Source: Candidatus Bathyarchaeota archaeon
GTDB lineage: Archaea > Thermoproteota > Bathyarchaeia > Bathyarchaeales > Bathycorpusculaceae
Direction of reading: 5' to 3'
Length of the DNA stretch: 64,000 nt
NCBI GenBank assembly: GCA_963780185.1
Contig: CAWABA010000004.1
Location: 79,944-143,943 of the forward strand
The position numbers were made by a program, and so were the translations under genes. Positions 12,503 through 63,773 of the stretch are shown here, one piece after another. Numbering within the stretch: the first letter of the stretch is position 1; each line of letters begins with the position of its first letter. Below the pieces are notes generated by a model. It did no database searches. It was not told the DNA's origin and saw only the letters and a program-made list of their open reading frames with translations.

Positions 12503-12557
12503 ATAAAAGCATTCTCGTAAATTTATCTTGACTAAGTTAAGTCAAGGTTTCTTGACT
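12503..12557 (-). promoter_or_regulatory. AGTCAAG tandem-box promoter module, copy 1
   Basis: Sense strand AGTCAAGAAACCTTGACT-taactt-AGTCAAGATAAATTTACG-agaatgc-TTTTAT, 25 nt before ATG 12477. Confidence 0.8.
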
Positions 12558-12561
12558 GGAA

Positions 12562-12858
12562 TTAGCCGCCGCCTACTGGAGGCAGAATCGCTAATACATC
12601 CCCGTCCCGAAGCTCCGTTTCCAAGCCGTTCATGGTTGAGGTGCTGTTTCCGTTGACGAGGAACTGCAAGAAACTTTTAGGCTGCCCAGTTGTGCCGTCA
12701 TAAACGTAATCCTTGAAGGCAACGCCATATTTTTCTGAGAGCATTTTGAGGACAGAGTCAACCGTTGCCTTCGTGCCCGTGGGGAGAGTTAGGGTTTCTT
12801 CTCTTTTGTTCACGATTTCCCGCAGGGAAGTGAAGAAGCGAACTTTAACCTCGACCGT
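12562..12858 (-). CDS. moaD: Ubiquitin-like MoaD/SAMP sulfur carrier
   Basis: VEVKVRFFTSLREI N-terminal strand and C-terminal LRDGDVLAILPPVGGG di-Gly. Start probably ACG at 12858 behind GGTGA (see findings). Confidence 0.9.
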   Translation of the reverse strand, partial: TVEVKVRFFTSLREIVNKREETLTLPTGTKATVDSVLKMLSEKYGVAFKDYVYDGTTGQPKSFLQFLVNGNSTSTMNGLETELRDGDVLAILPPVGGG

Positions 12859-12903
12859 TTCGATTCACCGTTACCTACTAATGCGAAAACCTGAAAAATA
12901 ACC

Positions 12904-13078
12904 GTTGCGCCAAACGCAACCATTCAAACTTGATTAACCAGAGACTACCCCTGAATCGCCGTGTCCGAGGTTGATGAGAAATCTTGGCTGAGGCTCTGGA
13001 AAATTTAAGGAAGAAAAGACGGACATGGGGAATTGCAGTATATCCATCTCGGTGAGTTTAACCAGAGACCTCAGCCAA
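12904..13078 (-). ncRNA. Candidate structured RNA or long 5' leader
   Basis: 16-bp outer stem (13062-78 with 12984-99) and an 11-bp inner stem with three G-U pairs only on the minus strand. TATA-like element about 25 nt upstream. Terminal hairpin at 12904-20. Confidence 0.5.
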
Positions 13079-13297
13079 TAATTAGGAAGTTGCAGCTAGT
13101 TACATATATTATTTTTCCTTCTACGAGCATAAATGTTACAAAAATGAAGTGAATTGTTTAGAAGCATTTAAAAAAAGGCTCAAAACCACTTGGAAAATAG
13201 CGGAGTTTTTTTGTGGAAATTGGTTGATGTTTTCCATCGGACAGTATTTGCAATCTTAGCAAAGCAACAGTTTATAAAAAGCTAATTAGGGATAGCC

Positions 13298-13771
13298 ATG
13301 TGGGGAGACAATAAGCCCATGCTGATCGAAACCGCAACCATCGACGATGCTACAGAGATATTATCTCTTCAGAAGCTAGCTTACCTAGGCGAGGCAGAGA
13401 TATACAACGACCTTTCTATTCCGCCGCTAGTTGAGTCTCTCAACGAGTTGAAGCAAATTTTTAAAAGCCACATCTTTCTGAAAGCAACGGTTAATGGAAA
13501 AATCGTCGGGTCAGTCAGGGCATTTGAGAAAGACGGCACATGCTACGTTGGCAGGCTAATGGTTCACCCCGACTTTCAGAACAAAGGTAACGGCACGAAG
13601 CTTCTGCTGAAAACTGAGTGCGTATTTGCTTCTTGCCTCAGGTTTGAGCTTTTTACAGGAAGCAAGAGCTTCAAGAATATTCACCTGTATGAGAAGCTCG
13701 GTTACAAGGCATTTAAGACTGAGGAAGTCTCGGGCAATTTAAAGCTTGTATTTCTTGAAAAGCTGAAATGA
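13298..13771 (+). CDS. GNAT family N-acetyltransferase
   Basis: GRLMVHPDFQNKGNGTKLL acetyl-CoA motif and NIHLYEKLGY. Confidence 0.9.
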   Translation: MWGDNKPMLIETATIDDATEILSLQKLAYLGEAEIYNDLSIPPLVESLNELKQIFKSHIFLKATVNGKIVGSVRAFEKDGTCYVGRLMVHPDFQNKGNGTKLLLKTECVFASCLRFELFTGSKSFKNIHLYEKLGYKAFKTEEVSGNLKLVFLEKLK

Positions 13772-13831
13772 ACCGACTTGTTTATCTCTTAAGCACATTT
13801 TAGAGTACTTTAAATGCAGAGGCTCAGCGGT

Positions 13832-14602
13832 ATGAAGTTAAGTTTGTCTAACGGATTATTCAGTAAGCTACGCTTGGATGGGAACTTCGCGGCTGTTAAG
13901 CAACTCGGGTTTGAAAACATCGAGTTTAACATGAAAGCCATAAAGAAAGAGCACGACAGAGACGTTTACCGGGAACAGAAGGCGTTGGCGGCTTCGGGGC
14001 TGAACTGCTTAACTCTTCACTCAGCTATTCTGCACGTGAAAGACCCCATCGAGGTGCATCAAGCGGTTTACTATGGCAAAATCTCGCTTGAATGTGCCCG
14101 CGCACTTGGCGTTTCACTTATGACCGTGCATTCAAACGTTTCAAAGAAGCTTCCCCGCAACGTCAGAGAAAGATGCCTCAACGAGATTTTTAATGATGAA
14201 ATCAAACCTTTCGCGAAAAAGCTGGGCATAAAGTTGGCTTTGGAAAACCTTTCCTACACGTCAACGGGGTTTGGCAAAAACGTTGAGCAGCTTGAAGAAA
14301 TCCTATCGGTCATAGACGACGAAGGTACCATGGGGATAACGTTTGATTTGTGCCACGCGTTGGAAACCAAGCAAACGGACAGTCTTCTTGAGAAGTATGG
14401 CAGCCGCGTCTGCAACGTTCACATGGCAAACAAAGCACATCAACCGTTCACCGAACCCAAACCCGAACTCCTATCCTTTCTGATAAAGTTACACTGCTTC
14501 GGCTACGATGGCCCCATAACGCTGGAGCTTGTGCACGACACGTCTATGGAAGAAATTGCAAAAAGCAAAGCCCTCTTTGACAGGCTTCTAAGCGAGTTTT
14601 AG
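13832..14602 (+). CDS. Sugar-phosphate isomerase/epimerase (xylose isomerase-like/AP endonuclease 2 TIM barrel)
   Basis: LGFENIE, LALEN, TFDLCH, NVH and GYDGPITLE metal motifs. Confidence 0.85.
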   Translation: MKLSLSNGLFSKLRLDGNFAAVKQLGFENIEFNMKAIKKEHDRDVYREQKALAASGLNCLTLHSAILHVKDPIEVHQAVYYGKISLECARALGVSLMTVHSNVSKKLPRNVRERCLNEIFNDEIKPFAKKLGIKLALENLSYTSTGFGKNVEQLEEILSVIDDEGTMGITFDLCHALETKQTDSLLEKYGSRVCNVHMANKAHQPFTEPKPELLSFLIKLHCFGYDGPITLELVHDTSMEEIAKSKALFDRLLSEF

Positions 14603-14861
14603 GGTTCAGGCAGGTTTTGGTTCACTCTATGGTGCAACAGCGGCAGACGCATTTTGCGCGTTTATAAGCGTGGGCTCCCTTATGTAGGCTGAAGAGTTTC
14701 TTTTGTTCTCTGGGTAATTGTCCAGTCACTGATTCTTTTCTGAGATAAGGAGAAGAAGGGGTAAAAAAACATGTATTTTATGGTTGGAGCATGGGCTCTG
14801 GAAGAAAATCTGCGGGAAAATTCCTGCAAAACAAGAGTCGCGCAAACGGGGGATTCAGTTT

Positions 14862-15068
14862 ATGGTTAATATAGGCGACGCGATGAAGTGCCCGGAATGT
14901 CAATCGTTAGGGTCCGTTGTCTGGCTCTCGCTTGACAAAAAAACGATGGGTGTGCGGTGCCACATGAGCCATCGGGAAGCGATTAGACCAGCATCTAAAT
15001 ACGGCGGAAAAGTAGCTGTCTCAACCAAGTCCAGAAAAAACGTGGTTTTCATAACGGCTGTAGGCTGA
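14862..15068 (+). CDS. Small zinc-finger protein
   Basis: MKCPEC...RCHMSH (CxxC...CxxxH), followed by a T-rich terminator tract. Confidence 0.6.
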   Translation: MVNIGDAMKCPECQSLGSVVWLSLDKKTMGVRCHMSHREAIRPASKYGGKVAVSTKSRKNVVFITAVG

Positions 15069-15148
15069 ATTTAGCGGACTTGAGCGGCTTTTTTCTGCTC
15101 TTTTTTTAAATCGCAATCATCGGGGATCGAACATAATTGTTTTCGTTG

Positions 15149-15448
15149 TTATAGAACGTAGACGTCTTGTATGGTTACTAACCCGTTGTCCCCGACTATC
15201 CGTTTTAGCTCTGGCAGAAGCGGTTCAAGCTTTGACTGCTCATCAATCACTTCAACTATTATAGGCATGTTAACCGTAACGCCTTCAAGCTTCAGAGTGG
15301 ACTTACCCCGTTTACCAAACCCGTCCACACCCGTCCAAACGGTGGCGCCGCTGACTCCAGCTTTGGTCAAAAGGTCTATGACGAGGGGTTCAAGCCGTTT
15401 GCCGCCGACCTCATCGTTCCGTTTGAATCTTACCGTTAAACTCCACAT
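15149..15448 (-). CDS. DUF190 family (PII-like) protein
   Basis: GVSGATVWTGVDGFG and MPIIVEVID. Coupled to crcB as in many genomes. ATG behind GGTGA. Confidence 0.85.
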   Translation of the reverse strand: MWSLTVRFKRNDEVGGKRLEPLVIDLLTKAGVSGATVWTGVDGFGKRGKSTLKLEGVTVNMPIIVEVIDEQSKLEPLLPELKRIVGDNGLVTIQDVYVL

Positions 15449-15456
15449 TTTAAGCC

Positions 15457-15846
15457 TCACCTTACTATCCGCTCCATCAACTCGTTCCCCACCACTTTCC
15501 CACCTAGCACCGCGCCTAAAGACAATCCAACATTCGCTAAAATGTTCAGCGCAACTAGGATAAAGCGGTTGCTATCCATGAGGTTGCTGGTTTCCAGCGC
15601 GAAGGACGACATTGTTGTGAATGCTCCGCAGAACCCAGTGGCGACAAGCAGGGTGTAGTTTGAATCCAAGTTCAAGGCAACAGCGAGAACGGAGAATAAC
15701 CCAAGGATGAAGCTGCCAAGAATGTTTACAGCTAAAACGTTGACGGGCAAGCCGCCGATGGTTTTGGGTGAAGCAACCATTACGTAACGGAGAAAAGCGC
15801 CCACTACTGCGCCAGCCGCCAGCAATGCGAATTCTATCATTTTCAT
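15457..15846 (-). CDS. crcB: Fluoride channel CrcB/Fluc
   Basis: GAFLRY, NILGSFILG and TGFCGAFTTMSSFALE Fluc signatures; four TM segments. Confidence 0.95.
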   Translation of the reverse strand: MKMIEFALLAAGAVVGAFLRYVMVASPKTIGGLPVNVLAVNILGSFILGLFSVLAVALNLDSNYTLLVATGFCGAFTTMSSFALETSNLMDSNRFILVALNILANVGLSLGAVLGGKVVGNELMERIVR

Positions 15847-15871
15847 GTGTGCCTACCTTGTTTTCGTTTGG

Positions 15872-15935
15872 GTAGGCATTATCAGCGTCCATCGGAGCAG
15901 TTCTGACCAGGCGGTCAAGGCTAATGCCATAGCGC
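15872..15935 (-). ncRNA. Fluoride (crcB) riboswitch aptamer
   Basis: GCTATGGCATTAGCC...ACCGCC...GCTGATAATGCCTAC matches the crcB motif (GCTA/TAGC stem, GGCAT/ATGCC pseudoknot, CCTAC tail), directly 5' of crcB. Confidence 0.88.
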
Positions 15936-16003
15936 AGATTTAGCTCAAAAATACGGCTGAAACATTTAAGCCTATTGGGCTGCCTCAAGCGTTTTTGTTG
16001 GTT

Positions 16004-16058
16004 AGTCAAGAAAATTTGACTGAGTTTAGTCAAGAAACCTTAACGAGAACCCTTTAAT
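16004..16058 (+). promoter_or_regulatory. AGTCAAG tandem-box promoter module, copy 2
   Basis: AGTCAAGAAAATTTGACT-gagttt-AGTCAAGAAACCTTAACG-agaaccc-TTTAAT, 24 nt before ATG 16083. Confidence 0.8.
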
Positions 16059-16082
16059 GGTAAATCGCCCCCAAACCAAACC

Positions 16083-17073
16083 ATGAGCCCCTTGAGTAAG
16101 ATTCTCCCGTTTACTTATTGTTCTCTTGTTAGTAGCCTGCAGTTTAATTGCGGCTAAGCCAGCTTGCGCCCAGTTGCCGACGCCATCTCCGCCCCAATTC
16201 ACTGTCAGATACGTCGGATTACTCTTATGATGTGCCGCCGACTTATGCGATTGACCAGTACACGGGACAAAACATAACCACAAGCGCTGGCTACCAAGTG
16301 GACAACAGAACCGTCGAATTCACAATCAGCAACCAACCCTATGTACCCAGCACTGACACGAACGGAAACACAATAGGGTTATACTACAACTTCCGATACA
16401 AAGGACACTACAGCCTCGACTGGAACTACTACCCATTCACTTACTGGACCAACAACCAAGTGACCACAATGCAGACCACCCACTCCTACGGAGCATACTC
16501 AGGTGGCTTCTTCCAACCCTACTCAGCTTCAAACACAGCATACACCGTCATAACGGTCCCACTGTACGACTTGACAAGCTATCCAGGCGGCCCACAAATT
16601 CCCAGCGGGGCCAAGTTGACTTCGAAGTACAAGCACAGTTGGGGTACATCTGCGACATACCTTCAGGCTTGCTGGCAGGAGACTTCTACAATTTCACGGG
16701 GCAAACAAGCCCATGGAGCGACCTGCAGACACTAAACATCGGGCAAACCAATCCAAGCGCAACCCCCGCTACGCCGACAAACCAGACAGCCTTAGTTATT
16801 GATGCCCCGATTCCCACAGATACGCCCACACCAACACCTGCATCAACCGCCACGTCGCCCACTTCAACATCAGGCAACCAAGACGCAACGCAGGCACCAA
16901 GCCAGCCCAGCCTCTACTCAACAGCGACTAAACCAAGCTTCAACTGGATTGAAGCCGTCACGGTCGCCAGCTTAGGCGTTTTCGCCATATTAGCAGGCAT
17001 CATCGTTTACATGCGGAGAAGAATTCGGGTTTTGGAGAACAAGATTGGGAATTCGAATCGAAGGGGAGATTGA
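16083..17073 (+). CDS. Secreted single-pass surface protein ('PSxPxFT...YDVPPTY..D.YTG' family), split by indels
   Basis: Fragments join as signal peptide, PTPSPPQFTVRY, YSYDVPPTYAIDQYTG...WSDLQT, PT linker, TM plus RRR. Confidence 0.7.
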
Positions 17074-17076
17074 CAG

Positions 17077-17980
17077 ATGAATTTGGCTCAAGCATGTGGC
17101 GTGCTCTTGGTGGCTTCGATGGTTGGCGGGTTGGCTTTAGGCATCAATTTTGGCTTGGTGCAGGGTCAATCCGCTATACCTACGCCTTCTGTTCCCAGTT
17201 TTGCACTCTACTACGTTGATCATCCATATGACGTTGCGCCAGTGGCGCCGACTTACACGACAAACCCCTACACGGGAGAAACACAGCAGACCAGCCCAGG
17301 GTCGCCAGGATACCATGTGGACAACACGTCTATTGAGTTGTGGATTTTGAACCAACAGTATATTTACTATTCAAACTACCACCTTTACTACGACGTCAGA
17401 ACAAGAGGCCATTTCGAACAAAATTGGACAGACGTTTACCCAACAGAACAACGAATGCGAACCGCAAACTGGACTGATCTACACCATACATCCAAAATCC
17501 CACCCCAATGCAATCAAACTCCCTATACACTGTCCTCTCGTTTTCAGCCACCTCATCACCTGTCAATGTCTATCCGCAAACTTACTATCCGCCAAACGCC
17601 ACGATCGATTTCCAAGTCGCGGCATTCGTGGGACACGATTCAAAATCTTTCCAAAACGAACACATCATGACATTCCCATAGGTGAATACATTGCAGCGGT
17701 CGCATTTGACACCCAAAGTGACTGGAGCACAATTCAGACCCTAACCATATCAAACGACTCCCTCACAACCGCTACACCAGACAACCCAACGCTGCCTCCA
17801 ACACCAACCCCGATACCGCTTTCAACTCCAACACCGCAAATAACAGCGCCGCCAGCGACAATCACACCAACACCAACTTCCACCGCTTCTGTTCCCGAGC
17901 TTTCCTGGCTGATAATCTTGCCTTTGCTCGCTCTCACTCTGTCTTTTGCGGCTACCATTAGACTTAAGAAGTGGGCTTAG
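17077..17980 (+). CDS. Tandem paralogue of the preceding surface protein, split by indels, ending in a VPEL-TM-basic tail
   Basis: IPTPSVPSFALYYVDHPYDVAP...NPYTG; downstream frame reads SDWSTIQT...VPELSWLIILPLLAL...RLKK, TAG at 17978-80. Confidence 0.7.
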
Positions 17981-18082
17981 GCACCCTAACGCAAAGTCGC
18001 CTACCTCTCTTTCAAGAAAGAGGGTTTTCCGAAACCTAAAATAAGCTGGCAACAAAATTGTACCCATCTGAGGTTTAATGCC

Positions 18083-19337
18083 GTGTCATCCATCATCGAA
18101 GACCTCATTGCAGGAAAGTTTTCAACAACCGCGGAGAAGAAACCATAGAGGTTGACGTAATCACCACAGGCGGCTTCGGACGTGCCGCGGCTCCCGCTGG
18201 AAAAAGCCGTGGGAAAGCTGAGGTGGTTTATTACCCACAGGGCGGAGTCGAAGCAGCCATCAAAAAAGTTGACGACTTAATTGCCCCTGAACTTGCGGGT
18301 TTGAACGCGGATTTCCAAGAGGAAATCGACAGCACCCTGCATGAAGTGGATGGGTCAACCGATTTTAAGAACATCGGCGGAAACACAGCCTTCGCCATCT
18401 CACTTGCCAACGCCGAAGCAGCCGCCAACAGCCACGGGCTTTTGCTATTTCCAGTTTCTCGGTGGAAACGCCGCGACCACGCTGCCGTACCCGCTTGGCA
18501 ACTGCATAAGCGGCGGTCAACATGCACGGGGCAAATGCGCCAGACATTCAGGAATATCTTGCGTTGCCGAGTGGCGCTGAAACCTTTGTTGAGGCGCAGA
18601 CGGCGAACACTCAGATTCACCGAAAAATCGGGGATTCACTCAAGAAGAAAAGTACAACTTTTAACGGCGGCAAAAGCGACGAGGGCGCATGGATAGCTAA
18701 CATTGACACGACTGACGCGTTTGAAGTTATCGCGAAAGCCTGTGAAGAAGTCGGCAACGAACTTGACTTTGAATGCGGCTTCGGCATAGACGTCGCTGCG
18801 TCTTCGCTTTGGAAGCCAAAAGAAGAAAAATACGTGTTGGAAAGCGAAGGCAAAAAACTTGAAACAGCCGAGACAGCTGGAGTTCCTGCTTGAATTGATC
18901 GAAAAATACCATCTCGCCTACGTGGAAGACCCGTTCCACGAGGAAGACTACGAAAGCTTCGCTGAATTAACCCGCAAATCCAAAAACTGCCTTAATCTGC
19001 GGCGATGATTTATTCACAACTAATACTGAAAGGTTAAATAATGGAATCAAGATTAACGCTGGAAACGCTATCATAATAAAAGTCAACCAGATAGGCACTC
19101 TTAGCGATGCGGCTCAAACGATTGAAACAGCGCAGAGGCACGGGTACGACCCTGTTGTTTCGCACCGTTCAGGAGACACATGCGACTGGCACATTGCCCA
19201 TTTAGCCGTCGCGTACAGTGCCCCTCATCAAAACAGGCGTCGTGGAAGGCGCACGCATAGCTAAACTCAATGAGCTCATAAGGATCGAAGATTTCCTTGG
19301 GAACAGAGCCAAAATGGCTGATTTAAAAATACGCTAA
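18083..19337 (+). CDS. eno: Enolase (several single-base indels in this sequence)
   Basis: Fragments [65 protein letters not shown] and KLNELIRIE are colinear across frames. GAGGT SD before GTG. Confidence 0.9.
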
Positions 19338-19353
19338 CAGAGAAAGTGAAAGT

Positions 19354-20177
19354 ATGTCTGAAGACGAAGTAAAAGATAATCAACCAGAAGAAAACGAAGA
19401 AGAAAACCCAGAGGAACCCGTAGAAGAGGAAGCTGCCCCAGAAGAACAGCAAGTTGAGGAACCTGCAACAGAAGCAGAAACTGAGGAAGAAACTCAACCA
19501 GCTGAAGGCGAAGAGGCCGAGGAAGCGGAGGCACCCCGACTCCAGAAGCAGCGCCAGGAGAAGAGTTGCTTTTGCCACGCGACACATTGCTGTCAGCAGG
19601 CATCCACATCGGCACCCGAATGAAAACCCTGGACATGGAGCCATTCATCTACCGAGTCCGCCCAGACGGGTTATTCGTACTTGACGTTAAAAAAACGGAC
19701 GACCGAATCAGAGTCACCGCCAAGTTCCTGTCACGTTATGAACACGCCAAAATCTCCGTGGCAGCAACCAGACTTTACGCGCAGGAACCAATCAAAATGT
19801 TCTGCAAACTCACAGGCGCAACACCGCTTATCGGCAGATTCATTCCTGGGCAACTGTCAAATCCGCAGTATCCAGGCAGAATCGACCCTGAAGTCATCGT
19901 TGTCTGCGACCCACGTGCAGACGCGCAGGCAGTCAAAGAAGCCAGCAACGTCGGCATCCCAATCGTCGCGTTATGCAGCACCGACAACGAATTCTCAGGC
20001 GTAGACCTCGTCATCCCAACCAACAACAAAGGCAGAAGAGCATTAGCCGTCATATTCTGGCTTCTGGCAAGGCAAGTGCTCCGTGAAAGAGGAGAACTTG
20101 GACCAGACAAAGACCCACCAGTAACCATCGATGACTTTGAAGCTAAAGTGACACGCGAAGAGGAGGAGGAACCCTAA
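19354..20177 (+). CDS. rps2: 30S ribosomal protein uS2 with long acidic N-terminal extension (one indel near 19535)
   Basis: LSAGIHIGT, GRFIPG, DLVIPTNNKGRRAL. ATG 19354 frame joins the core frame at a C run. Confidence 0.93.
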
Positions 20178-20182
20178 AGCAG

Positions 20183-21034: not shown

Positions 21035-21050
21035 GGGTAAGCAGCGGTTT

Positions 21051-23582: not shown

Positions 23583-23595
23583 GGTGGATGGCAAA

Positions 23596-24903: not shown

Positions 24904-24909
24904 CCCAAA

Positions 24910-37518: not shown

Positions 37519-37769
37519 TATTCCACATTTCCTAACGAATATCTAATTCGAGCATTCACTAAAACATTGGATTTCCATATAAACGTATCCGTTTCAAGCC
37601 TTATCTTCCTCAACCAAGATGCTTATGCGTTCTCGTTTCAAGCCTATTTTGCCCTCTACAGAAGTATATGGCTTGGTAGATTGTCGCATTAGAAAAAGTT
37701 GCCAGCATAGTTTGTTGAGAATAAGTGTCAAACCTTAAAAAGGAAAAAGTGTTAGTTACTTTGTCTACG

Positions 37770-38069
37770 ATGAAGTCCTTGGAAGAAATAAAGGCTCAGT
37801 TAGAAAAACTCAAGCCAATTCTCAAAGAAAAGTATCAAGTGGAAACGATAGGCGTGTTCGGTTCGTACTCGCGAGGTGAACAGAAGAACAAAAGCGACAT
37901 TGACATTCTCGTCACTTTCTACGAACCAAACGACATCGACCTTATCGACTTCATCGAAATAAAGCAGTTCCTTAGCAACAGACTGAAGACAAAAGTTGAT
38001 CTGGTAAAAAAGAGCGCTTTGAAGCCTTTAATTAAAGACAAAATTCTTGGAGAGACGATCTACATTTGA
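37770..38069 (+). CDS. Minimal nucleotidyltransferase (MntA-type antitoxin)
   Basis: FGSYSRGEQKNKSDIDILV (GSx10DxD) and KVDLV. Confidence 0.9.
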   Translation: MKSLEEIKAQLEKLKPILKEKYQVETIGVFGSYSRGEQKNKSDIDILVTFYEPNDIDLIDFIEIKQFLSNRLKTKVDLVKKSALKPLIKDKILGETIYI

Positions 38070-38410
38070 CCAGAAGCATGAAACTCTACCTTCAAGACAT
38101 CTCTGACGCCATCAAAGAAGTTGAAGAATTCATGACAGGTCTTTCTTTTGAAGATTTTTCCGAAAACAAGCAAGTAATTCGAGCAATAACAATGGATTTC
38201 ATAATAATCGGAGAAGCATCTAAACATTTGCTGACGGAGACCCGCAAAAGATATCCTCAAATTCCTTGGCAAAAAATTGTCGGGATGAAAAATATTCTCA
38301 CACACGATTATCCTGAAACAGATAACGAAATCCTCTGGAAAACAGCCAAGAAAAGATTACCAGAATTAAAGATCGTAATCGATGAAATCCTCGAGGAAAC
38401 GTCTGAGTAA
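38066..38410 (+). CDS. HEPN/DUF86 (HepT-type) toxin
   Basis: IIGEASK, YPQIPWQKIVGMKNILTHDY. 4-nt overlap with the MNT gene. Confidence 0.88.
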   Translation: MTRSMKLYLQDISDAIKEVEEFMTGLSFEDFSENKQVIRAITMDFIIIGEASKHLLTETRKRYPQIPWQKIVGMKNILTHDYPETDNEILWKTAKKRLPELKIVIDEILEETSE

Positions 38411-39807: not shown

Positions 39808-42800
39808 TTAGCTGGGCTGCCTCCGCTGGGAACTTTGCTGTCACAACGTTGGAGATTCCGTTGCGTTCGTAGACTCCGTAAACTTTCTGCGCCCGGTTCA
39901 CCATTTCGGGTCTAAGACTGATTACTATGAACTGCATTTTTGCGGCTTCGTCCAAAAGTAGGTCGGCAAGCCTGCGCCGTGTGGTAAGCGTCCAAGTGCG
40001 CGTCGACTTCGTCGAGGATGTAGAATGAGGCTGGCGTGAAGTCTTTAAGCGAGAAAATGAAAGCAACCGCCGTAATTGAACGTTCACCGCCGCTGGCTCC
40101 GCTGACCACGATTGAAGGCTTATTCGGGAACTGAACAATCATGTCTATACCGCCAGCGAAGGGTTCATCAGGGTTTTCAAGCTTAATCGTAGCTTCGCCG
40201 CCGCCGGTGAGTTTAGAGAAGTAAACTTTGAGGCTGGTGTTGATTTTTTCGAATGCATCCATGAAAACCTTGCGTTTCTTAGCTTCAATCTCATCCATAA
40301 ACTGCACAATGGCTTGCTTTTCTTTTTCCAACTCGTTTAGCCGCACTGAAAGTTCTCGGTAACGTGAAAGCTGGTCGGCGTAGTGGGAAAGGGCAAGCTG
40401 GTTTATGGCGCCGATGGTTTCTATTTCGAACTGCATCATCCGAATAGTGGTTTGCGCCTCTTCAACCTGCTTCTGGGTTGTTTCCAGCGGCTGATCATAC
40501 CCGAACTGGCGAAGTTGACTTTGAAGCTGCTGCAAACGCAGTTGATTCGTCTCCGTGCTAAGTTGCAGTTGATTCAGCAAACGGTCAGCTACCTCATACT
40601 CGGTGTCGAGCAAACGCAGTTCAGCGTCGATAGAGTCAATTTGCGCAGTGAACTTTTTGGATTCTTCCCTGGCGGAAAACACGGCTTTGGAAAGTTCAAC
40701 CCGGCTCTTCTCTTGCTCTTCAAGTTCCTTCTTGACGCCGTCGCGTTCCAGCAGTGCGTCTGCGACTTCTTTTTCCAGTTTTTTCTGCTGCTGCTCAACC
40801 CGAACGATCTGAATCTTTATGTTTTTGTATCCGTTGCGAAGAACCCTGTCGAACTGGGATTGGTAAGTTGAAATCTCCGTCTGCGTTGACCCCGAGTTCT
40901 GCTTAAGCGTGTTGACTTCTTCGCCGAGTTTTTCTCGTCCGACCTCAAGCGCCTGGATGTTCTTAACGTCAGTTTTCAACCTTAAATTGGCGATTTCGCC
41001 GCGAAGCCTCTCGTCTTCCCTGCGCATGCTGTTGCGTTCGTTTCGGTAAACCTCCATGCGTCCCTTGTAGGATGCGGCTTCACGTTCAAGTTTGCCGCCG
41101 TATTTTTCTGTGTAGCGGATGTTGAACTGGGTTCTTTTGACGCCTCGTTTGATTCTCACTATTTCCCTGTCCAAAGTAGCGATGCCTTCTACGAGACGGG
41201 TCATCTCGATTTTTGACTGCTCCACCTCTTCTTCAAGACCCGTAATGTCGGTTCCTCTCTGGGTAAGATGCGTCTGCAATGCGTTGACGGCTTCATCCAA
41301 GCTTTTCAGGGCGTTTTCGCTTGGGATAATCGTTGAGAAATCTATCGGTGCACGGTAATACCCGCTTTCGAAAGCGCCCGACTCGTACAGGTCGCCGTTG
41401 ACTGTGACAGCGCGGTAGCCTTCGTTTGAAAGCGCAAAAGCCACCTTATCGTTCGAAACCACCATGGTGTCTCCGAAAACATAGTTCACCGCCAACTCCC
41501 ACGTTGCTATCGTACTTCATGAAGCTGGAAAGCGCGCCGACTACGCCTTCGCGGTTGGGAACAGGTTTGTTTTTGACGTTTATGTATCCCTGCAACGGGA
41601 TAATTTTGATTCTGCCCAGCTTCATACGTCTGAGCGTTTCGGTGCAGGTGAAGGCTGAGTCAAGGTTCGCCACAACTAACGCGTCAAGCCAACCAGTCGC
41701 CGCTGCCTCAATGGCTTTCTTGAAGTTCTTATCAATCTTTATTAAATTGCGGAGTCTACCGTGGATTCCGTTGATTGCGCCGACATTTCCCATTTCCTCA
41801 ATGCTTCGAAGGGCTTTCTCTTCAGAGGCAATGGTTGCGGCAAGGTCTCTCTGGGTCGCGAATTCTATCACGGCGTCTTTGGCGGAGCTCGCGATTTTTT
41901 CGGCTGCTTCGATTTCTTTTTCAACGGTGTCTTTCTGCGTTTTTTTGCGTTCGATGGTTGCTTCAAGGTTTTTAAGCTGGATTTTCTGGTCCTTTTGAAC
42001 TTGCTCCAGCTCAGAAAGTGACTTTTCAATTTCCGCCAGGTTGGCGCGGAATCTTTCTTTGCGCACGGTTAAGTTTTTGATTCTTCCAGTGCAAAGGCGA
42101 AGGGCTCCTTTTTCTTTGGTGTATTCCGAACGCAAATAGGCCATGCGTTTAACGTGATTGTCGATTTGAGTCTGCTTTGCACGTATTTGCTCGTTGTTGC
42201 TGTCAAGTCCACCCCAAAGCTCAGCGGTCTGCTGCGCCAACACCTCGTGTTCAGACACCTTTTGAGCCATTGCAACCTGGATTTTCGCGAGTTCATTTCG
42301 GAAAACCCTGATTTTGAGGCGGTTTTCCCGTATTTCACTTCGAATATTTTCCTGCTGCGCCAAGTTGTTTTCTCGTACCCGCTTGAGGCTTTCGAGGCTG
42401 CCTTGCCCAGAATTGATTTTTGTGTTCAACTCGGATAATTTGGATTTTAATTCGCCGATGGTAATTTGGACTTTGAGAACTTGGGAGCCGCCTTCTTCGA
42501 GGTTTTCGCCGCTGAGTTTGCGCCATTCGCCTTCAACGTCGTGGCGTTTGCCCCTGCGTAGGTCCCGTTGCTCTTTGAGCTTGTCAACTCTTGCTTGGAC
42601 TTTTTCGTTTTGGCTTTTGGCTTCGTTTAGTTTGGCGTTTATTTGGGTGATGTCGCTTGAGATTTTGATGGCTTGAAACTTTTTGGTTTCCGCTTGGATG
42701 AAGTTGTATCGTAAGAGCTGGTTGCGTTCGCGTTCCAAATCGTCGAGGCGCTTCTGGACTTCATCGATTCTTCCCATGGCAGTGCGGATGGAAATGTCGG

Positions 42801-43362
42801 CTGCACGGAGTTTTTCTTCGGCTTCAACCTTCTCCGAGTCGTATTGGCCTATCCCGACGAGGTCTTCGATTATTTTTCGTCGCTCCAAAGAGTTAATTTC
42901 AGTGAGCCTTGTGAGTGTGCCCTGCGGGATGATGTTTTGGCTCATGCTGCTTATTGAGCTCATGGAGAGGGTTTCTGTTATGTATGCGCGTGACATTCTT
43001 CTGCCGTTTAAACGGTAGACGCTTTGCCCGTTCTTGAAAACTTCCCGTGAAATAGTCACCGTGGTTGTGTCCACAGGCATTGTGCCATCTGTATTGTCAA
43101 ATTGGATAACTACCTTCGCCATCTTCGCCTTTTCTTGCCCCGCCTTGTCTGAACCGTGAAAAATCAGGTGCGCCGCATTTTCAGCGCGAAGCCTTCGGGT
43201 GCTTAATTCGCCAAGGGCGAAAAGCACGGCGTCGATGATGTTGGATTTTCCGCTTCCGTTCGGACCCGTCAGGGCCGTGAATCCTTTGTCTAAGGATATT
43301 TTGATGGTCTGCGGCCCAAACGATTTGAAACCTTTTAACTCAATTTTTTTTATGTAGGGCAT
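39808..43362 (-). CDS. smc: Chromosome segregation protein SMC (indels near 41499, 39975 and probably 39815)
   Basis: GFKSF, GPNGSGKSN, coiled coils, hinge, SGGE and YILDEVDAHLD. Three ORF pieces are colinear. Confidence 0.93.
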
Positions 43363-49750: not shown

Positions 49751-49900
49751 TGTTAAAACCTCCAATACTTAATTGAAACTAATAGAAGAATGGGATCAGT
49801 TCCCACAGACGCTGCAGAAATGGATCCTGAACAAGTCTTGGGATGTCTGATTCTCTTAAGTGCTCCTGATGTGCTTGTCGCCACCATGTTCGAGCCTCGT

Positions 49901-54517: not shown

Positions 54518-54760
54518 AATTTTGTCCTTATTTCTTTCTTGTCGGGCGGGGTCGCTTATACACTTTATGGTTTCTCACGATACTTGACAACCTGTAGAAC
54601 AATTCTAAAGTACAACAAACAGACAACAACACCCCAAAAAGAAAAAGAAGCCAAAACAGAAGAAGCAGCAAAAATCAATCAAGCCCCGAGGCGCCCCAGA
54701 AAAAGCTGGTTCTCCGAAACTCATAAAACTGAAAGCCACGTAAAAGCAACGGTTGATAAA

Positions 54761-57646: not shown

Positions 57647-57701
57647 CTTTTTTCCCTGCAGATTTTCGCAAATTATAAAAGTACACCATATCAACTCTAA
57701 C

Positions 57702-60086
57702 ATGACTGCTATGAAAAAAGCTGTTGCCGCAACAATTCTTGTATTGGCTATGCTTCTTTCTTCCGTGGTCTTTGTGCAGTCCGTTCATTCTAAGACTGTA
57801 ACAAAAATTGTTATCAGACAAAGCGGAAGCATCGACCCTTCAACAGCGCCTATCGTTCGCCACGGGGAAACCTACGTTTTAACAGGAGACATAAGAACTC
57901 AAATCGTTTTGGAAAGGGGAGGCACAGTTCTTGACGGCGGCGGCTTCTCGCTTGTAGGCGGCGGAGGCGGGGTTGGATTAAACATGACCTGCAGCAACGC
58001 CACGCTTCAAAACCTAAACATAATCGATTGGCGAAGACGGCATACTGGGCATTTTCAACAACAACACCATTCAGGACTGTTCGGTAACCCAGTGTTTTGA
58101 CAGCGCCATCGGCATATACGCTCAAGACTATGCGGTGATAAGGAACAGTATTGAATGGAACGATGTAATGGCATCACAATCGGGCATGGCGGTCACAACT
58201 TCATTGCAGGCAACAACATAATCAATAATTACGTCGGCATTTCTCTTTGAGGATTCCAATAATGAAATAGTTCAGAACAATATTGAGAACTGCAGCCAAC
58301 GCGCAATAATTCTTGATGTTTCTGGATGGAGCCAAATCTGTTTTTCATAACAACTTTGTCAATAACCTGAAAGAATTGAGTGACGACACCTACGGCAACA
58401 GTGGAAGACCCGCTGCAGGCGTCTCTTCCTTTTTGGGATAACGGTTCAAGCGGTAACTATTGGAGTGACTACATAGGCATCGACGTAAACGGCGACGGCA
58501 TAGGCGACTCACCCAACATGATAACTACATACATCGGAAACAATGAGACTTGCTCCTTACAGTTTCGTAGACCGCTATCCCCTCGCAACACCATTCAACA
58601 TCAACCGACCACATTCCCCCAATTCCCAACAATCTAACGTCAACGATCGATTCCACCCGGAAGCCCCAGTCGCAAATGACCAAGCAATAGCATTGTCCTT
58701 TTTGAAAAACATAATCCAACTTGACACAAGCAAATACGCAATAACATTAACCTACGATACTGAGGCCACAAATAACGGGTTTTCCGACAGATTACCTCGG
58801 CTACGGACTTGTCCAGAAGAGCCAACCCTTTGACAGAACCGCAACGCAATTTTCGCAATCAGCCAATAACTCGGTAACCTCTTTCTCCATTCAGCCCACA
58901 GGCGGTCAACTGTTTTTCACGTACTTCGACCTCAAACAATTTTGATTCAGCCAACCAGGATTATGCAAAGCTATCAAACTTGGACAAAAGACTCAGACGT
59001 AAACAAAATGGTAAACCTGCTCAACACGGTTGGCTCCACAAGAAACTTTACCGACTATATCAGATAACATAGAATTTAAAATGTCAACAACATCCTGAAC
59101 AAACCTCGTTCAGTTGGAGCTACACCTACAATGGAGCCGATTATTCCAGCGTAAACTTGGAGTTCCAAAATCTTTTCGGATTCATTCTCATCAACTTTCT
59201 CTGATAATCGAGGCATCTACACCATAGGCAACACCAACGTAAACATCTCAACGCAACAAGCCATCCAGACTGCCGACAACTACGTCAGAAGCCTCTCGTA
59301 TCCGATGAATTACGGCAACGGAAGCATCATAACAGTTAAAGGCTTAACCATAAACGAAACCAACACCACAGCCAGCTTATCCACGACAAGCCAAGACTCA
59401 GTGACTCTGTACCCGTACTGGAGCGTCCAAGTCCCGCTTGCCCACAGCTACCCAGAAGAAACATACGCCGTTACGGTAGGTGTGTGGGCTGGCAACGGAA
59501 CAGTCTTCAGCTGCTCAACGTGATGTTGTTCCAAGAACCTTTCCTGTCCCGTCTTACGCTCCGCCTTCACTGTTTGGCATCTATTTTTCCGTTTTTGGGT
59601 TATCATACCATTCTTTCATTATTGCTTGGCTCATTTACTTCCTTTTAATGACAACTCGGACGGAGCAGAACTCAAAGAGAAATGTTTGTTTCAGGCAGAA
59701 CTCCTCGGGAAATAAAAGATGAAGCGTTGAGATGGTTCAGCCAAAACAGAGTTGACATTATGGAGAACCGCGTAGGTTTCGTGAAAGGCAGATGGGGAGC
59801 CGGATTGCTGACTGCCCAAAGCATTTTCAGGTCTATTTTACGACTGCAGAAGGCGGAGTTAAAGTCTACGTGGAAGGCTGGATAAGCTTCTTAGGAGCTG
59901 GCGAACAGAATTTTTCACGCTCAGCCGTAATGGGATGCGATTCCTCGAAGAGAAGGCTGGAGGGCCATGGAAAGACTTTGTTCCGCACTCGAAGGGATGT
60001 CGAGACCGACTAAAGTCTGTCCCCAATGCGGCAGAACCCTGTTTGTGGATGCAAAGTTTTGTAACTATTGCGGCAAAAAACAATGA
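57702..60086 (+). CDS. Heavily frameshifted NosD-type beta-helix surface protein, followed by (or fused to) a TM segment and a double zinc-ribbon domain
   Basis: Fragments: signal peptide, IVIRQSGSIDPSTAPI, WDNGSSGNYWSDY...DGIGD, TM, and CPQCG...FCNYCG ending at TGA 60084-86. One gene or two cannot be resolved. Confidence 0.55.
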
Positions 60087-60243
60087 CGAAGCTTTAGGTA
60101 ATTTTCTTTAGGCATTTTCCGTTTTGCTTTGTTTTCTAAAGCTTTTATTTTTCAAAAAGGCGAATACAAAAAAATGGGAAAAGCATAAGCAATTAAGGCT
60201 CAGCGACGCAATTTAGAATGTAGTTGGAACGTGGGGTTTGAGT

Positions 60244-61689
60244 ATGAAAGTTACCGTTGCAGTTTTAGATAAGCGGGGCAACCAACGCAGTGGGAAAGGT
60301 TCTGGACGTGCTCAAAGAGTTTGAGCGTTGAACAGCCTTTGCACTTCGGGGTAGTTTCTCCTCGGAAAAGCGTTCTTGACAAGAACCTTGAGCTTGCTAA
60401 GCAGGCAAAGCCCTGAATCCTCGACCGCCGTCGGCTGTATTTCCTCAAAACCAGCATCAAGAAGCTACGAATTCTTGCAGCTGGATGATGCAGCGCTTGT
60501 TTTGCAGGGAAAAGTGTACTCGGCAACCCCGAAAACAGCCGTTTATCAGCAGCTCGCCAAAGAGCCTCAGCACTGCGAAGCCATCCTGCAAACGCTCCTC
60601 GAGAAAGCCGACGGGGACTACGCGTTTCTTATGCTCAAGGAAGGCTGGATTGCGGCGGGAAGAGACCCCGTTGGAGTTCAACCGCTGTATTAGGGCGAAA
60701 ACCAAGACGTCGCCGCGGTTGCCACAAACCGAAAAGCACTCTGGAAACTGGGCATAGAAAACCCGTCTTCTTTTCCGCCGGGAAACTTTGCATTCATAAA
60801 CCGCGAAGGCGTCCAGTTCAAACCAGTAAAGACCCTGAGTTTCTCGTTGCCCAAGCCGATTACGCTGGACGAAGCAGCCCAAAAGCTTCAGGCGCTCGTT
60901 GAAGAATCACTCAAACGCCGCACAAACGACATCAAGGATGTTGCGGTGGCGTTTTCAGGAGGCTTAGACAGCAGCCTCGTCGCTTATTTGGCAAGCAAAC
61001 TCGGGTTAAAAGTCAACCTTCTACATGTAAGCATGGAAAATCAGGCGGAAACGGAGGAAGCCATCGTGGCGTCGGAACAGCTGAATCTGCCTCTTCAGGT
61101 GGATTTGTACAAGGATTCTGACGTGGAAAAAACCTTGCCCAAAGTCGTGGAGTTGATTGAGGAGGCTGACCCGATTAAAGCCAGCATCGGCTTGCCGTTT
61201 TATTGGATGGCGGAGCAGGCGGCTGAAGCGGGTTTGCATGTGGTTGTTGGCTGGGCAGGGTGCGGATGAACTGTTCGGCGGCTACCAACGCTACGTCAGC
61301 GAGTACTGCAGGGAAGGCAGCGAAAAAGTCCTCAAAACGATGTTCCACGACGTCATTAACATCCATGCGAGCAACCTTGAACGCGACCTGAAAGTCACGG
61401 GTTACCACGACGTTGAGTTGCGGATGCCGTTTCGCTTCGTTTGACGTCGCCGAGTTCGCGGTTGGCTTGCCGATTGAATGCAAAATCGAACCCAAACCGG
61501 ACACTCTGCGGAAGCTCGTCCTCCGCAAGGTTGCGCTTGAACGTCGGTATGCCGCGTCGCGTGGTGGATAAGCCTAAGAAGGCGGTGCAGTACTCGACGG
61601 GCATCAATGATGCGGTGAAGAGGGTTGCCAAGAAACATGGGAGAACGGTTAAAGAATACGTTGAGGAGCTTTTCCAGCAAACGAGATGA
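60244..61689 (+). CDS. Asparagine synthetase B-like ATP pyrophosphatase (several indels, one in-frame TAG)
   Basis: GDYAF, RDPVGVQPLY, AFSGGLDSS, GQGADELFGGY, RMPF, KKAVQYSTG. Confidence 0.85.
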
Positions 61690-61724
61690 CGGCAACCTAC
61701 TTTGGAGAAGAAAAAGCGTACAAG

Positions 61725-62972
61725 TTAGCGATTTTTTCGATGCCGCCTAAAAAGTATGAAGATAATGAATATCACTAAGACTGTAAAGGCGACAAAAGGA
61801 ATCGTGAGTGACGTAACTAAAACACCGATTGTGAAAGGAGGCGTAGGCGCTGGAGCTATTGCGTTAATATCGATAGGATGGAAAAGTGGATGGTAATCGG
61901 TGTTGTTTTGGTCTATTATGTATGGCGTATTAGCAATCCCCAAACCATTAAGTTCAGTAGCATTAGGATACTTCTTTTGGTAGTCACTCCAGTAATTGCC
62001 TACACGGCCATTGTCCCAGTAAACAATGTCAGAATAATTTGCAACATACATGCCGTCGGAACCAAAGTTATAAGTGCTCTGAATTTTTGCGGCCTGAGAA
62101 TTGCCGACTATATTGTTATAGTAAACATGGTTGCCAACGCGAGCACTAGCAAAAACGTCGTTTGAAGAGTATTTACCTATGTAGACACCAATCCCGTTAT
62201 CTTTAATATTGTTGTTATAAACTAAACAATTGTTTGCTCCATAAAATTTTATCCCAAATTGCGAGTTGCCTGTAATATTATTCTCAAAAACAAGGACTGA
62301 GTTGCCGTCTAATTCTAAGCCGTCGATTCCGTTTCCCGCTATATTGTTTTGCTTGATTGTCGCAGCAACACAGGAAGAGCTCATTGCTATTCCCGTACTT
62401 ACCCGAGTAACAGTATTGTTTGAAACGTCAGAGTATACAGAATTTAAAACAACACCAGCGTCTGCGCTTGTAATGGTATTCCCGAAAATAAGGTCATTCA
62501 TTATTCCATTGTCTTCGATGCAATCGTCGCTATTTTCTATGATATTACCGATTATTCTACATCTAGAAACCTCGTCAATGATAATGCCTTTGTTGAGCGC
62601 GCCGTCTATTGTAAAGCCTGATATTGTAACGTTGTCAGCGGATACAAGTATGCCTACTTGAAGGGGGTAATTGAATTGTGGTTTTATTATGGTTTTTTGG
62701 CTGTTTTCACCGATTAACAGTAGCGGTTTGTCAATTACTATGTTGACGTGGTCGTCTTCAAAATTAGTTGTTGGATGAACAAAGTAAGTTCCGTTTTTTA
62801 CATATACGGTGTCTCCAGCACTTGCGTTATTTATGGCGTCTTGGATTGTGGGGTATTGGTCAGGAACTACAAGAGTTCTGGTTTGAGCTTTCGCGGTTGC
62901 AGGTTGAAAGCTGACAATAGAGATTAAAAATAAACCAATAAGCACCAAAGCGAAAGTTTTCTTAAAGCCCAT
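61725..62972 (-). CDS. Secreted NosD-type beta-helix protein with TM anchor
   Basis: VPDQYPTIQDAINNASAGDTVYVKNGTY, WDNGRVGNYWSDY, DYHPL, TM plus RRHRK. Confidence 0.88.
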   Translation of the reverse strand: MGFKKTFALVLIGLFLISIVSFQPATAKAQTRTLVVPDQYPTIQDAINNASAGDTVYVKNGTYFVHPTTNFEDDHVNIVIDKPLLLIGENSQKTIIKPQFNYPLQVGILVSADNVTISGFTIDGALNKGIIIDEVSRCRIIGNIIENSDDCIEDNGIMNDLIFGNTITSADAGVVLNSVYSDVSNNTVTRVSTGIAMSSSCVAATIKQNNIAGNGIDGLELDGNSVLVFENNITGNSQFGIKFYGANNCLVYNNNIKDNGIGVYIGKYSSNDVFASARVGNHVYYNNIVGNSQAAKIQSTYNFGSDGMYVANYSDIVYWDNGRVGNYWSDYQKKYPNATELNGLGIANTPYIIDQNNTDYHPLFHPIDINAIAPAPTPPFTIGVLVTSLTIPFVAFTVLVIFIIFILFRRHRKNR

Positions 62973-62996
62973 AATAATCAGTACGAATGGTTGTCG

Positions 62997-63051
62997 ATAA
63001 AAGCCTATTCGTAAAGATTCCTTGACTGGGCCAAGTCAAAGTTTCTTGACT
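62997..63051 (-). promoter_or_regulatory. AGTCAAG tandem-box promoter module, copy 3
   Basis: Sense strand AGTCAAGAAACTTTGACT-tggccc-AGTCAAGGAATCTTTACG-aataggc-TTTTAT, 24 nt before ATG 62972. Confidence 0.8.
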
Positions 63052-63167
63052 TGTTTTCTATGCCTAACTATCACAGCAAAAGAGAACAAAAAGACGCAAA
63101 GGCACAATTACTAACCAGATAACAGAAGTCGAACATTTGGTGCTAATTGGTGTTAAATGCTGTTAAG

Positions 63168-63683
63168 CTAATAATATCCCTGATTAACCCAAGTTACCGA
63201 TTCAGACCCACTATATATTAGACTGTAATAGGTATGCGCATCATAATCCATCCCGTTAAAAATTGTTGTTGAATAGACAAATTGCAATTCAAAAACTTGG
63301 CTACTGTGAGATACTCCTATGGTGAGGTTCCCACTATTTAGGGGATTGACAGTTGCCTGAGGTAAAAACACACCACTTCTTGGAGCATAAAGTTGCAAGT
63401 GGAATTGAGAGTAGCTAACATCAATATCATTACCGCCGATAAAGGTTGCATTTACCATTAAGGTTACCTTCGTATTATTACCTACATCTCGGCTAATCTC
63501 ACTGTAACTGATAGACATTTTAGACGGGATTGGTGTTGGCTTAGGCGTCGGTGCAATAGTTGGGGATTTTGGGTTACTATAATTAATGCCAATATGATTT
63601 TCCACAAGTATAAGAAGAGAGATTAGACTAAACACTAAACTTAGAACAACCAAAACAAAAAGGATTGCCATCGAAGTCTTCAT
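63168..63683 (-). CDS. N-terminally anchored extracellular beta-rich protein
   Basis: N-terminal TM, PT linker and an alternating beta-strand domain. Confidence 0.7.
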   Translation of the reverse strand: MKTSMAILFVLVVLSLVFSLISLLILVENHIGINYSNPKSPTIAPTPKPTPIPSKMSISYSEISRDVGNNTKVTLMVNATFIGGNDIDVSYSQFHLQLYAPRSGVFLPQATVNPLNSGNLTIGVSHSSQVFELQFVYSTTIFNGMDYDAHTYYSLIYSGSESVTWVNQGYY

Positions 63684-63719
63684 TGCTATCTCTCTTAGCT
63701 ATTTGTGAATATCTTAGTC

Positions 63720-63773
63720 ATAAAAGGCTATTCGTAAAGGATTCTTGACTGGCTAAGTCAAAGTTTCTTGACT
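63720..63773 (-). promoter_or_regulatory. AGTCAAG tandem-box promoter module, copy 4
   Basis: Sense strand AGTCAAGAAACTTTGACT-tagcc-AGTCAAGAATCCTTTACG-aatagcc-TTTTAT, 36 nt before ATG 63683. Confidence 0.8.

Follow-up and report, generated by a model that had tools for sequence, protein, structure and literature searches.

A 64-kb stretch of a Bathyarchaeia genome (the window, C4:79944-143943 of the 2.75-Mb, 13-contig assembly G000) carries four copies of a promoter module made of two 18-bp palindromic boxes and a TATA-like hexamer, and modules of the same design recur throughout the genome. Judging from the sequence, we consider the module very probably a composite cis-regulatory element, in which operator pairs of a dimeric regulator would serve the mostly leaderless promoters of surface-protein genes. 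The consensus reads box 1 AGTCAAGAAAYYTTGACT, a 6-nt spacer, box 2 AGTCAAGRAAYCTTTACG, 7 nt, and CTTTTAT. The window copies had been described in an earlier note on this DNA, and its coordinates and strands proved exact for all four:

12503..12557, minus strand: module copy 1; box 1 at 12557-12540, 6-nt spacer, box 2 at 12533-12516, 7 nt, TTTTAT at 12508-12503, ATG at 12477
16004..16058, plus strand: module copy 2; box 1 at 16004-16021, box 2 at 16028-16045, TTTAAT at 16053-16058, ATG at 16083
62997..63051, minus strand: module copy 3; box 1 at 63051-63034, box 2 at 63027-63010, TTTTAT at 63002-62997, ATG at 62972
63720..63773, minus strand: module copy 4; box 1 at 63773-63756, 5-nt spacer, box 2 at 63750-63733, TTTTAT at 63725-63720, ATG at 63683

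Geometry and conservation of the modules

Read in gene sense, box 1 of the window copies is AGTCAAGAAA(C/A)(C/T/A)TTGACT and box 2 is AGTCAAG(A/G)(A/T)A(A/C/T)(A/C)TT(T/A)ACG; the gap between them is 5-6 variable nt, and the 7-mer A(A/G)(A/T)A(G/T/C)(C/G)C separates box 2 from TTT(T/A)AT. The distances from TATA to ATG, 25, 24, 24 and 36 nt in copies 1 to 4, are those that had been claimed. Copy 1 had also been placed 4 nt past a moaD stop, and a ThiS/MoaD-family open reading frame (ORF) at 12562-12813 (-) does end 4 nt before it. With at most one mismatch allowed, the 18-mer box pattern has 11 matches in the window against 0.22 expected, a number that none of 100 shuffles reached.

A mismatch scan for the two boxes on both strands of the genome gave 61 matches, which reduce to 36 unique modules. 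From 26 modules, all with 6 nt between the boxes and TATA at an offset of 7, we built a 56-position position weight matrix (PWM), which scores above 15 bits at 41 places in the genome and at none in the base-reversed genome, where the maximum is 2.7. The scores are bimodal. Two weaker modules were gained in this way (C6:902391 and C5:149873, 43.8 bits), and of the leftover matches two are shifted in register and belong to modules with a 5-nt spacer, one is a truncated copy, C5:121643, and the others reflect the palindromes on the reverse strand. Three more modules have a 15-17-nt spacer (C9:72134, C10:103794 and C11:16892/16910), so that the genome holds about 41 intact modules and a few degenerate ones, one of them at C6:183255. 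The truncated copy, on the minus strand, has box 1 and its spacer but breaks off after the first 11 nt of box 2, to be followed by unrelated AT-rich DNA and a different membrane-protein gene, and it looks like a rearrangement breakpoint within box 2.

The earlier note had asked whether genome-wide matches would be placed at random relative to TATA and ATG, and they are not. A TATA-like hexamer begins exactly 7 nt past box 2 in 31 of the 36 modules, and in 20 of the 36 an ATG in the signal-peptide frame follows 22-26 nt after the hexamer. Since the usual archaeal distance from TATA to the start site puts the start of transcription at, or within a few bases of, such ATGs, the module genes would mostly give leaderless transcripts.

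The spacing of the boxes is similarly regular. Of the 36 modules, 30 have 6 nt between the boxes, three have 5 nt and three have 7 nt. A PWM for the single box finds 106 matches at 92 positions in the genome, against four in the control, and the start-to-start distances between neighbouring boxes are 23 (three times), 24 (24 times), 25 (once), 33 (twice), 34 (once) and 35 bp (once), with no other distance of 80 bp or less anywhere in the genome. In the long-spacer copies the 7 nt between box 2 and TATA are retained and it is box 1 that shifts outward. The listed box pairs of a relative, G068, are 23, 34, 34, 35, 35, 44, 45 and 46 bp apart. The distance between boxes changes in units of one helical turn, about 10.5 bp. 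Such quantisation is what would follow if two proteins were kept on the same relative face of the helix, and a history of duplication gives no known reason for it.

We then considered how far conservation extends beyond the boxes. When the 26 modules are aligned on box 1, information content is about 0.1 bit per position from -40 to -3, 1.3-1.9 in the boxes, 0.2-0.6 in the inter-box spacer, 0.2-1.7 in the 7-mer resembling a TFB recognition element (BRE), 1.2-1.7 in CTTTTAT, and about 0.2 past TATA. Spacers and flanks, which the earlier note had singled out as a place to look for box-like conservation, are therefore far less conserved than the boxes (0.1-0.6 against 1.3-1.9 bits). All-against-all BLASTN of the 400-nt upstream flanks found similarity in five of 630 pairs, and three modules have some 30-90 nt of upstream flank in common. 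Downstream of the modules only paralogues resemble one another, over short stretches and at 65-89%, and in the largest target family the members have 26-41% protein identity to the first member of the alignment.

This pattern bears on the possibility that the modules stem from recent duplication, gene conversion or a mobile promoter, with or without its gene, and have no regulatory meaning. Some targets are indeed tandem paralogues, and the three modules with a common flank and the one truncated copy would fit such a history as well. However, because the boxes and TATA are conserved and the flanks, spacers and coding sequence are not, recent duplication is excluded; the targets fall into eight clusters whose paralogues are as divergent as just noted, and the same architecture stands before signal-peptide genes of other species that are comparable by type, not established orthologues. 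In 625 of the 630 pairs the upstream flanks show no relationship, which also speaks against the earlier note's alternative of mobile promoter-plus-gene cassettes, and neither the flank comparison nor the 52 other window ORFs scanned revealed conserved termini or flanks, terminal repeats or a recombinase accompanying the modules. We regard an origin of this kind, without regulatory meaning, as extremely improbable.

Genes behind the modules

The four genes that follow the window copies are:

11119..12477, minus strand: target gene 1, 452 aa, with signal peptide, C-terminal transmembrane helix and RHRK anchor; no Pfam family
16083..17073, plus strand: target gene 2, a broken member of an unnamed 'PEFTVKY' surface-protein family
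61725..62972, minus strand: target gene 3, 415 aa, NosD/right-handed beta-helix, with signal peptide, transmembrane helix and RRHRK anchor
63168..63683, minus strand: target gene 4, 171 aa, with N-terminal hydrophobic anchor; no family

For the genome as a whole, we searched Pfam with 28 downstream proteins, 25 of them intact ORFs and three the long frames of broken genes; eight modules have no usable frame behind them. Above the cut-off, five proteins match NosD/Beta_helix, two BNR_4 and two a PQQ propeller, while 19 match no family. BLASTP sorts the 25 intact targets into eight clusters, of 10, 4, 3, 3, 2, 1, 1 and 1 members; target gene 1 clusters with three other module genes that do have beta-helix matches. 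What the targets have in common is their ends. By simple hydrophobicity rules applied to a crude set of 2529 genes, a signal-peptide-like N-terminus is present in 25 of the 28 module genes and in 486 of 2501 others, and a signal peptide together with a C-terminal anchor in 21 of 28 as against 146 of 2501 (Fisher p 4e-20), which bears out the enrichment for signal-peptide genes that the earlier note had proposed to test. Nearly all of the N-termini follow M-x3-4-K-[ST]-x-A-L-x-L-[IV]-L..., with a cleavage region of the A-x-A|Q type, and most C-termini consist of a Thr/Ser/Pro-rich linker, often with VPE[FL]SW, followed by a hydrophobic helix and RHRK. Tandem paralogues among the targets are found at C3:65-70 kb, C7:121-122 kb and 62.9-63.8 kb of the window.

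Several observations weigh against a simple link between the module and the cell surface. The gene, signal-peptide and anchor calls are heuristic. Of the roughly 167 genes that encode both a signal peptide and an anchor, just 21 have a module, so that it would control or mark about one in eight of the anchored surface proteins and not all of them. The ORFs behind C5:150706, C6:427456 and C9:273985 are non-secreted or unclear, and in the other 16 of the 36 modules the ATG lies at 12-50 nt from the hexamer or the start is unclear.

Within the window, the earlier note's claim that no housekeeping gene has the module holds for all 52 other ORFs scanned, which include topoisomerase VI, aIF5B, ABCE1, ribosomal proteins S2 and S8e, GluRS, SRP19 and SMC. 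Three other large beta-propeller or beta-helix proteins in the window are also without it. The same 52 ORFs contain no cognate regulator, as the note had likewise stated.

Members of the largest target family are about 250-300 aa long, with a mature N-terminus of the form ...P[EQ]FTVKY..., and the family has 734 database relatives at E <= 0.001. Among the best 120 of these 734 we found no Pfam domain and no name beyond 'hypothetical protein'. An AlphaFold2 model (mean predicted local distance difference test score, pLDDT, of 72) places an all-beta ectodomain between the signal-peptide and anchor helices, and the model has no match in the PDB at E <= 0.001.

Many targets resemble the archaeosortase/PEF-CTERM sets in ending with VPE[FL]SW, a transmembrane helix and RHRK. 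Tripartite C-terminal tails define archaeosortase substrates, according to the part of PMC6098224 drawn on here; those sets, however, are defined by a protein-sorting signal, and the set described here is defined by its promoter. G000 has one match above the cut-off to the exosortase/archaeosortase family PF09721, at a contig edge (C10:8-247), and two weaker ones. When eight C-terminal 60-mers of targets were compared with NCBIfam, all fell below the cut-off: PEFG-CTERM reached 20.3 against 25 bits in one of the eight, PEF-CTERM 10-11 against 23 in two, and Loki-CTERM 14.6 against 19.9 as the better of two.

Two of the window targets call for comment. For copy 2, the earlier note was right about the module and its distance to the ATG, but the ORF opened by that ATG is just 24 codons long. 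The signal-peptide core and ectodomain of target gene 2 run on in other frames (16148-16735 and 16639-17073), with at least two breaks, and the frameshift may be either real or an assembly error. A second PEFTVKY-family paralogue (17077-17670, +) follows in tandem with no module of its own; it is possibly co-transcribed with target gene 2. Target gene 4 may be a truncated anchored protein that has lost its C-terminal anchor. Between its stop and box 1 of copy 3, at 63052-63124, lies an out-of-frame relic encoding a hydrophobic helix and RHRK, which runs into box 1 and, on the opposite strand, mimics a small ORF ('MPNYHSK...'). A divergent ORF of this kind beside box 1 of several copies was rejected as a gene, being the reverse strand of the anchor-coding sequence of an upstream tandem paralogue.

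Broken reading frames are also seen elsewhere in the window. The SMC gene falls into two ORFs that overlap (39915-41495 and 41449-43362, -), and enolase (18223-18893, +) is fragmented, the sole called piece being a 157-aa N-terminal fragment. These frameshifts suggest indel errors in the assembly, and those in module genes may thus be errors too; for this reason we do not take the 8-10 broken module genes as pseudogenes. Toxin-antitoxin-like genes lie amid the housekeeping genes of the window (1116-1532, 8696-10253 and 37725-38407): a PIN-domain protein, a DUF6036 nucleotidyltransferase beside a 350-aa protein without a Pfam match, and a nucleotidyltransferase/HepT pair.

Proposed mode of action and the search for a regulator

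The boxes are inverted repeats of 7-4-7 structure, such as winged-helix dimers usually bind. If TATA lies at about -30 to -25, box 2 falls at about -55 to -38 and box 1 at about -79 to -62, with the 7-nt gap in the place of the BRE. In the mechanism that we propose, two 18-bp palindromic operators (half-sites AGTCAAG / CTTGACT) would stand in fixed register with a BRE/TATA core promoter, and a sequence-specific regulator, most likely one winged-helix dimer per box with both on the same helical face, would control the recruitment of TFB and TBP from about -46 and -70. Some 40 dispersed, mostly leaderless genes would be co-regulated in this manner, their products being Sec-exported, C-terminally anchored and drawn from several unrelated families. 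Site symmetry, helical phasing and the position upstream of BRE/TATA suggest a regulator that is dimeric, cooperative and activating.

Position is informative in this respect. A palindrome upstream of BRE/TATA leads to activation and one downstream to repression in the cases of TrmBL1/Tgr and VNG1451C, and Ptr2 and TFB-RF1 are upstream activators contacting TBP and TFB, as set out in the passages used here of a review on TrmB (PMC4158304); by this rule the module looks like an activator site. By analogy with these systems control is probably by activation, to which we give somewhat better than an even chance, with repression well behind and a dual role taking up the rest.

The same operator pair might instead serve a repressor or dual regulator, as a tetramer beside the BRE that blocks or distorts the binding of TFB and TBP and keeps the genes silent until an inducer appears. 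Indeed, nothing separates box 2 from the 7-nt BRE-like segment. CTTTTAT, moreover, is close to consensus and strongly conserved, so that these promoters may not need an activator, and most archaeal DNA-binding regulators repress, some acting both ways, according to the same passages (PMC4158304). Yet the boxes overlap TATA or the start site in none of the 36 modules, whereas the repression sites covered in those passages lie at or downstream of TATA and the activation sites upstream of the BRE (PMC4158304), and one of the regulator genes discussed below has palindromes directly after its TATA, a repressor geometry unlike that of the box modules. A repressor or dual regulator at these boxes is, we think, unlikely.

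A further alternative would dispense with a dedicated box binder and treat the module as a special core-promoter class, an extended BRE plus TATA read by one TFB paralogue. The genome has about four TFB genes (eight cyclin-repeat matches above the cut-off, in four pairs), and such paralogues may define promoter classes:

C7:242916, C9:95203, C9:196268 and C6:944732, all in G000: TFB paralogues

Conservation takes in the 3' half of box 2 (TTTACG) and the A-rich 7-mer with its final C, right up to TATA. In box 2 the half nearer the promoter consistently reads TTTACG in place of TTGACT, and in gene sense both boxes have a directional centre, GAAAC. These two features are conserved in their own right, which suggests a contact with a basal factor or an asymmetric binder. 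But TFB contacts only about 6-7 bp upstream of TATA, and the conserved block extends about 55 bp upstream, well beyond that. Two dyad-symmetric 18-mers at whole-turn spacing are the signature of separate dimeric binders, and the 7-mer is A-rich like the sequence before other TATA-like hexamers in the genome, as far as a noisy ORF-start consensus tells. A dedicated TFB might contribute to the mechanism, although it cannot explain 55 bp of dyad-symmetric sequence, and we consider a TFB-read promoter class by itself very improbable.

Operator pairs of a dimeric regulator thus remain our preferred reading, and we looked for that regulator among the neighbours of the modules. A split TrmB-like gene 1.1 kb from C6:893566 was dropped because relatives at 40-54% occur equally in motif-bearing and motif-free genomes. 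Two PadR genes after the C6:258356 target and a gene of the ribbon-helix-helix-AIR-synthase type divergent from C6:793217 yielded nothing that tracks the motif. G000 has 13 TrmB and 12 PadR matches above the cut-off, and no Lrp-family candidate emerged in the analysis of this genome.

A better lead came from the degenerate module at C6:183255, in which box 1 and half a box 2 stand 15 nt apart, followed by AAAACGC, TTTTAC and, after 25 nt, a GTG. Behind it lies a gene for a Cys4 and multi-winged-helix protein, which frameshifts have broken in G000. Intact relatives of this protein, with Cys4 and a winged helix-turn-helix (Cys4/wHTH), are 311-337 aa long and match HTH_45 (and in one case HxlR) above the Pfam cut-off, and the nearest solved relatives of the family are winged helices of the ArsR/NolR type. 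Paralogues of three types can be told apart by their operators:

a-type, two ATGAC-N3-4-GTCAT palindromes directly after its own TATA: G000, G013, G019, G047, G068, G045, G046, G056, G063, G064 and G204
b-type, AGTCAAG boxes upstream: G000, G013, G068, G006, G064, G056 and G045
c-type, neither operator: G019, G047 and G063

The b-type genes have two boxes in five genomes, and one canonical box plus a degenerate second one in G000 and G006. We surveyed the best 80 homologue loci in a collection of species-representative genomes, 75 of which could be parsed: 64 have ATGAC palindromes, including that of another genus (G204), 11 have AGTCAAG boxes, and none has both or neither. In G000 the a-type gene (C7:89014-89427, -) has its operator at C7:89541-89573, two ATGAC-N4-GTCAT palindromes 19 bp apart (locus L075), and intergenic ATGAC palindromes occur only there (twice) and in two other places. 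With so few sites beyond its own gene the a-type protein looks like a classic autoregulator, and it is a probable autorepressor.

By analogy, the b-type protein may recognise the AGTCAAG boxes and exert positive feedback on itself. However, we found no b-type gene in four box-bearing genomes, namely G046 (97% complete, in three contigs), G063 (85%), G204 and G213, and the b-type rows do not form one resolved clade in a 12-row tree; the b-type gene may for these reasons be a target rather than the binder. The earlier note had suggested looking for a helix-turn-helix gene with the same box; such a gene exists, but it is missing from some genomes that have the boxes. We give rather less than an even chance to the b-type paralogue being the box binder; otherwise it would be a member of the regulon, a regulator under the switch's control. 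The b-type promoter signature, in the form AGTCAAGAAAGTTTGACT ... TTGACG AAAACCC ATTTTAC, is also seen in G046 at locus L053 (C1:386900-388850), where the module stands before an ORF for a Cys-rich protein of 63 aa, with a proteasome beta-subunit gene further downstream; this is one of the genomes in which no b-type regulator was found.

Distribution in relatives and biological meaning

The earlier note had also proposed a scan of other Bathyarchaeia. The exact two-box pattern is present in 12 of 24 congeneric genomes and in none of 16 from other families of the order; with at most one mismatch it is found in 49 of 60 congeneric genomes, with up to 20 matches each and one control match overall, although these kin genomes are not independent of one another. 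In a draw of 150 genomes from the class, it occurs in four of five congeners, in one of ten genomes of other genera of the family (G204), in three of 18 from other families of the order (G213, G167 and G025), and in one of 117 from the rest of the class, the last with a single one-mismatch match. Within the order, the element is seen in three genera besides that of G000.

The architecture in G013, G046 and G064 is the same as in G000, and most of the downstream ORFs begin with signal peptides. The boxes of G213 and G204 are recognisable, but with the central A-tract flipped or a third element added. G068 gives no short-spacer match and yet has 83 single boxes against 11 in the control. In three near-complete congeners, G006, G019 and G047, boxes occur at background level only, and the single member of the largest target family in G047 retains a collapsed, degenerate module. 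About nine members of that family in G006 have a different common upstream sequence attached to a similar BRE/TATA. At loci L104, L107, L108 and L110 this sequence is followed by GGAATAACCTTTTTAAT, and it looks as if the operator had been replaced and the core promoter kept. We take the element to be old, at roughly the level of the order; most of the genus has kept it, and some species have lost or replaced it.

Paired upstream palindromes are familiar from Ptr2, the Lrp-family protein of Methanocaldococcus jannaschii, whose dimers bind two adjacent palindromic sites just upstream of TATA and recruit TBP at a few targets, rb2 and fdxA; the module differs from its sites in motif and in its many targets. 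Ptr2 is named as an activator interacting with TBP in the passages cited above (PMC4158304). TFB-RF1 (PF1088) of Pyrococcus furiosus also has a palindromic site just upstream of BRE/TATA, TCTG-N5-CAGA next to the BRE, and activates by recruiting TFB, according to the part of PMC5937170 drawn on here; its promoters, however, have a single site and a weak BRE, and two are known, whereas the module has two phased 18-bp sites, another motif and some 40 targets. As with TrmBL1/Tgr and the Thermococcales glycolytic motif (TGM), a palindromic motif defines a regulon genome-wide. The TGM is TATCAC-N5-GTGATA, and its position relative to BRE/TATA decides between activation and repression, as the same review passages state (PMC4158304). 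It occurs once per promoter before sugar-metabolism genes, whereas AGTCAAG-N4-CTTGACT occurs twice per promoter before surface-protein genes, and a direct comparison found that the module box is not the TGM sequence.

The dyad sites of the module are clear of BRE/TATA and recur before a coherent gene set beyond chance, as in an upstream-operator regulon. We therefore read the module set as being in kind an archaeal upstream-operator regulon like those of TGM/TrmBL1, TFB-RF1 and Ptr2, yet a member of none of them, as the motif differs. It is distinctive in having about 40 near-identical operator pairs in rigid register, spacer classes one helical turn apart, and almost exclusively exported, anchored targets, all in an uncultured lineage. 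A full-text literature search for promoter and binding motifs returned, in the excerpts seen, no described cis-regulatory code for Bathyarchaeia, and nothing on Bathyarchaeia surface proteins with archaeosortase was among the matches listed.

Bathyarchaeia are abundant, uncultured archaea of sediment and peat, and in the genome studied here one regulator probably switches much of the cell's surface coat. The element would mark which surface proteins are made together and is a defined DNA bait for finding the regulator. Its natural spacer series (24, 34 and 45 bp) bears on how archaeal activators face the TBP/TFB complex, and the start codons of targets can be fixed in annotation from the distance to TATA. 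A more specific scenario, on balance somewhat unlikely, is that duplication of a regulator gave this lineage a 'surface-coat switch' of its own, the b-type protein being a metal- or redox-sensing, positively autoregulated activator that recruits TFB to about 40 leaderless promoters. If so, the b-type protein would bind two helically phased operators and turn on a set of anchored surface proteins together, its a-type sister would have kept a private ATGAC-N4-GTCAT operator and regulate little beyond itself, and the pair would record how a new archaeal regulon arises through divergence of operator specificity after duplication.

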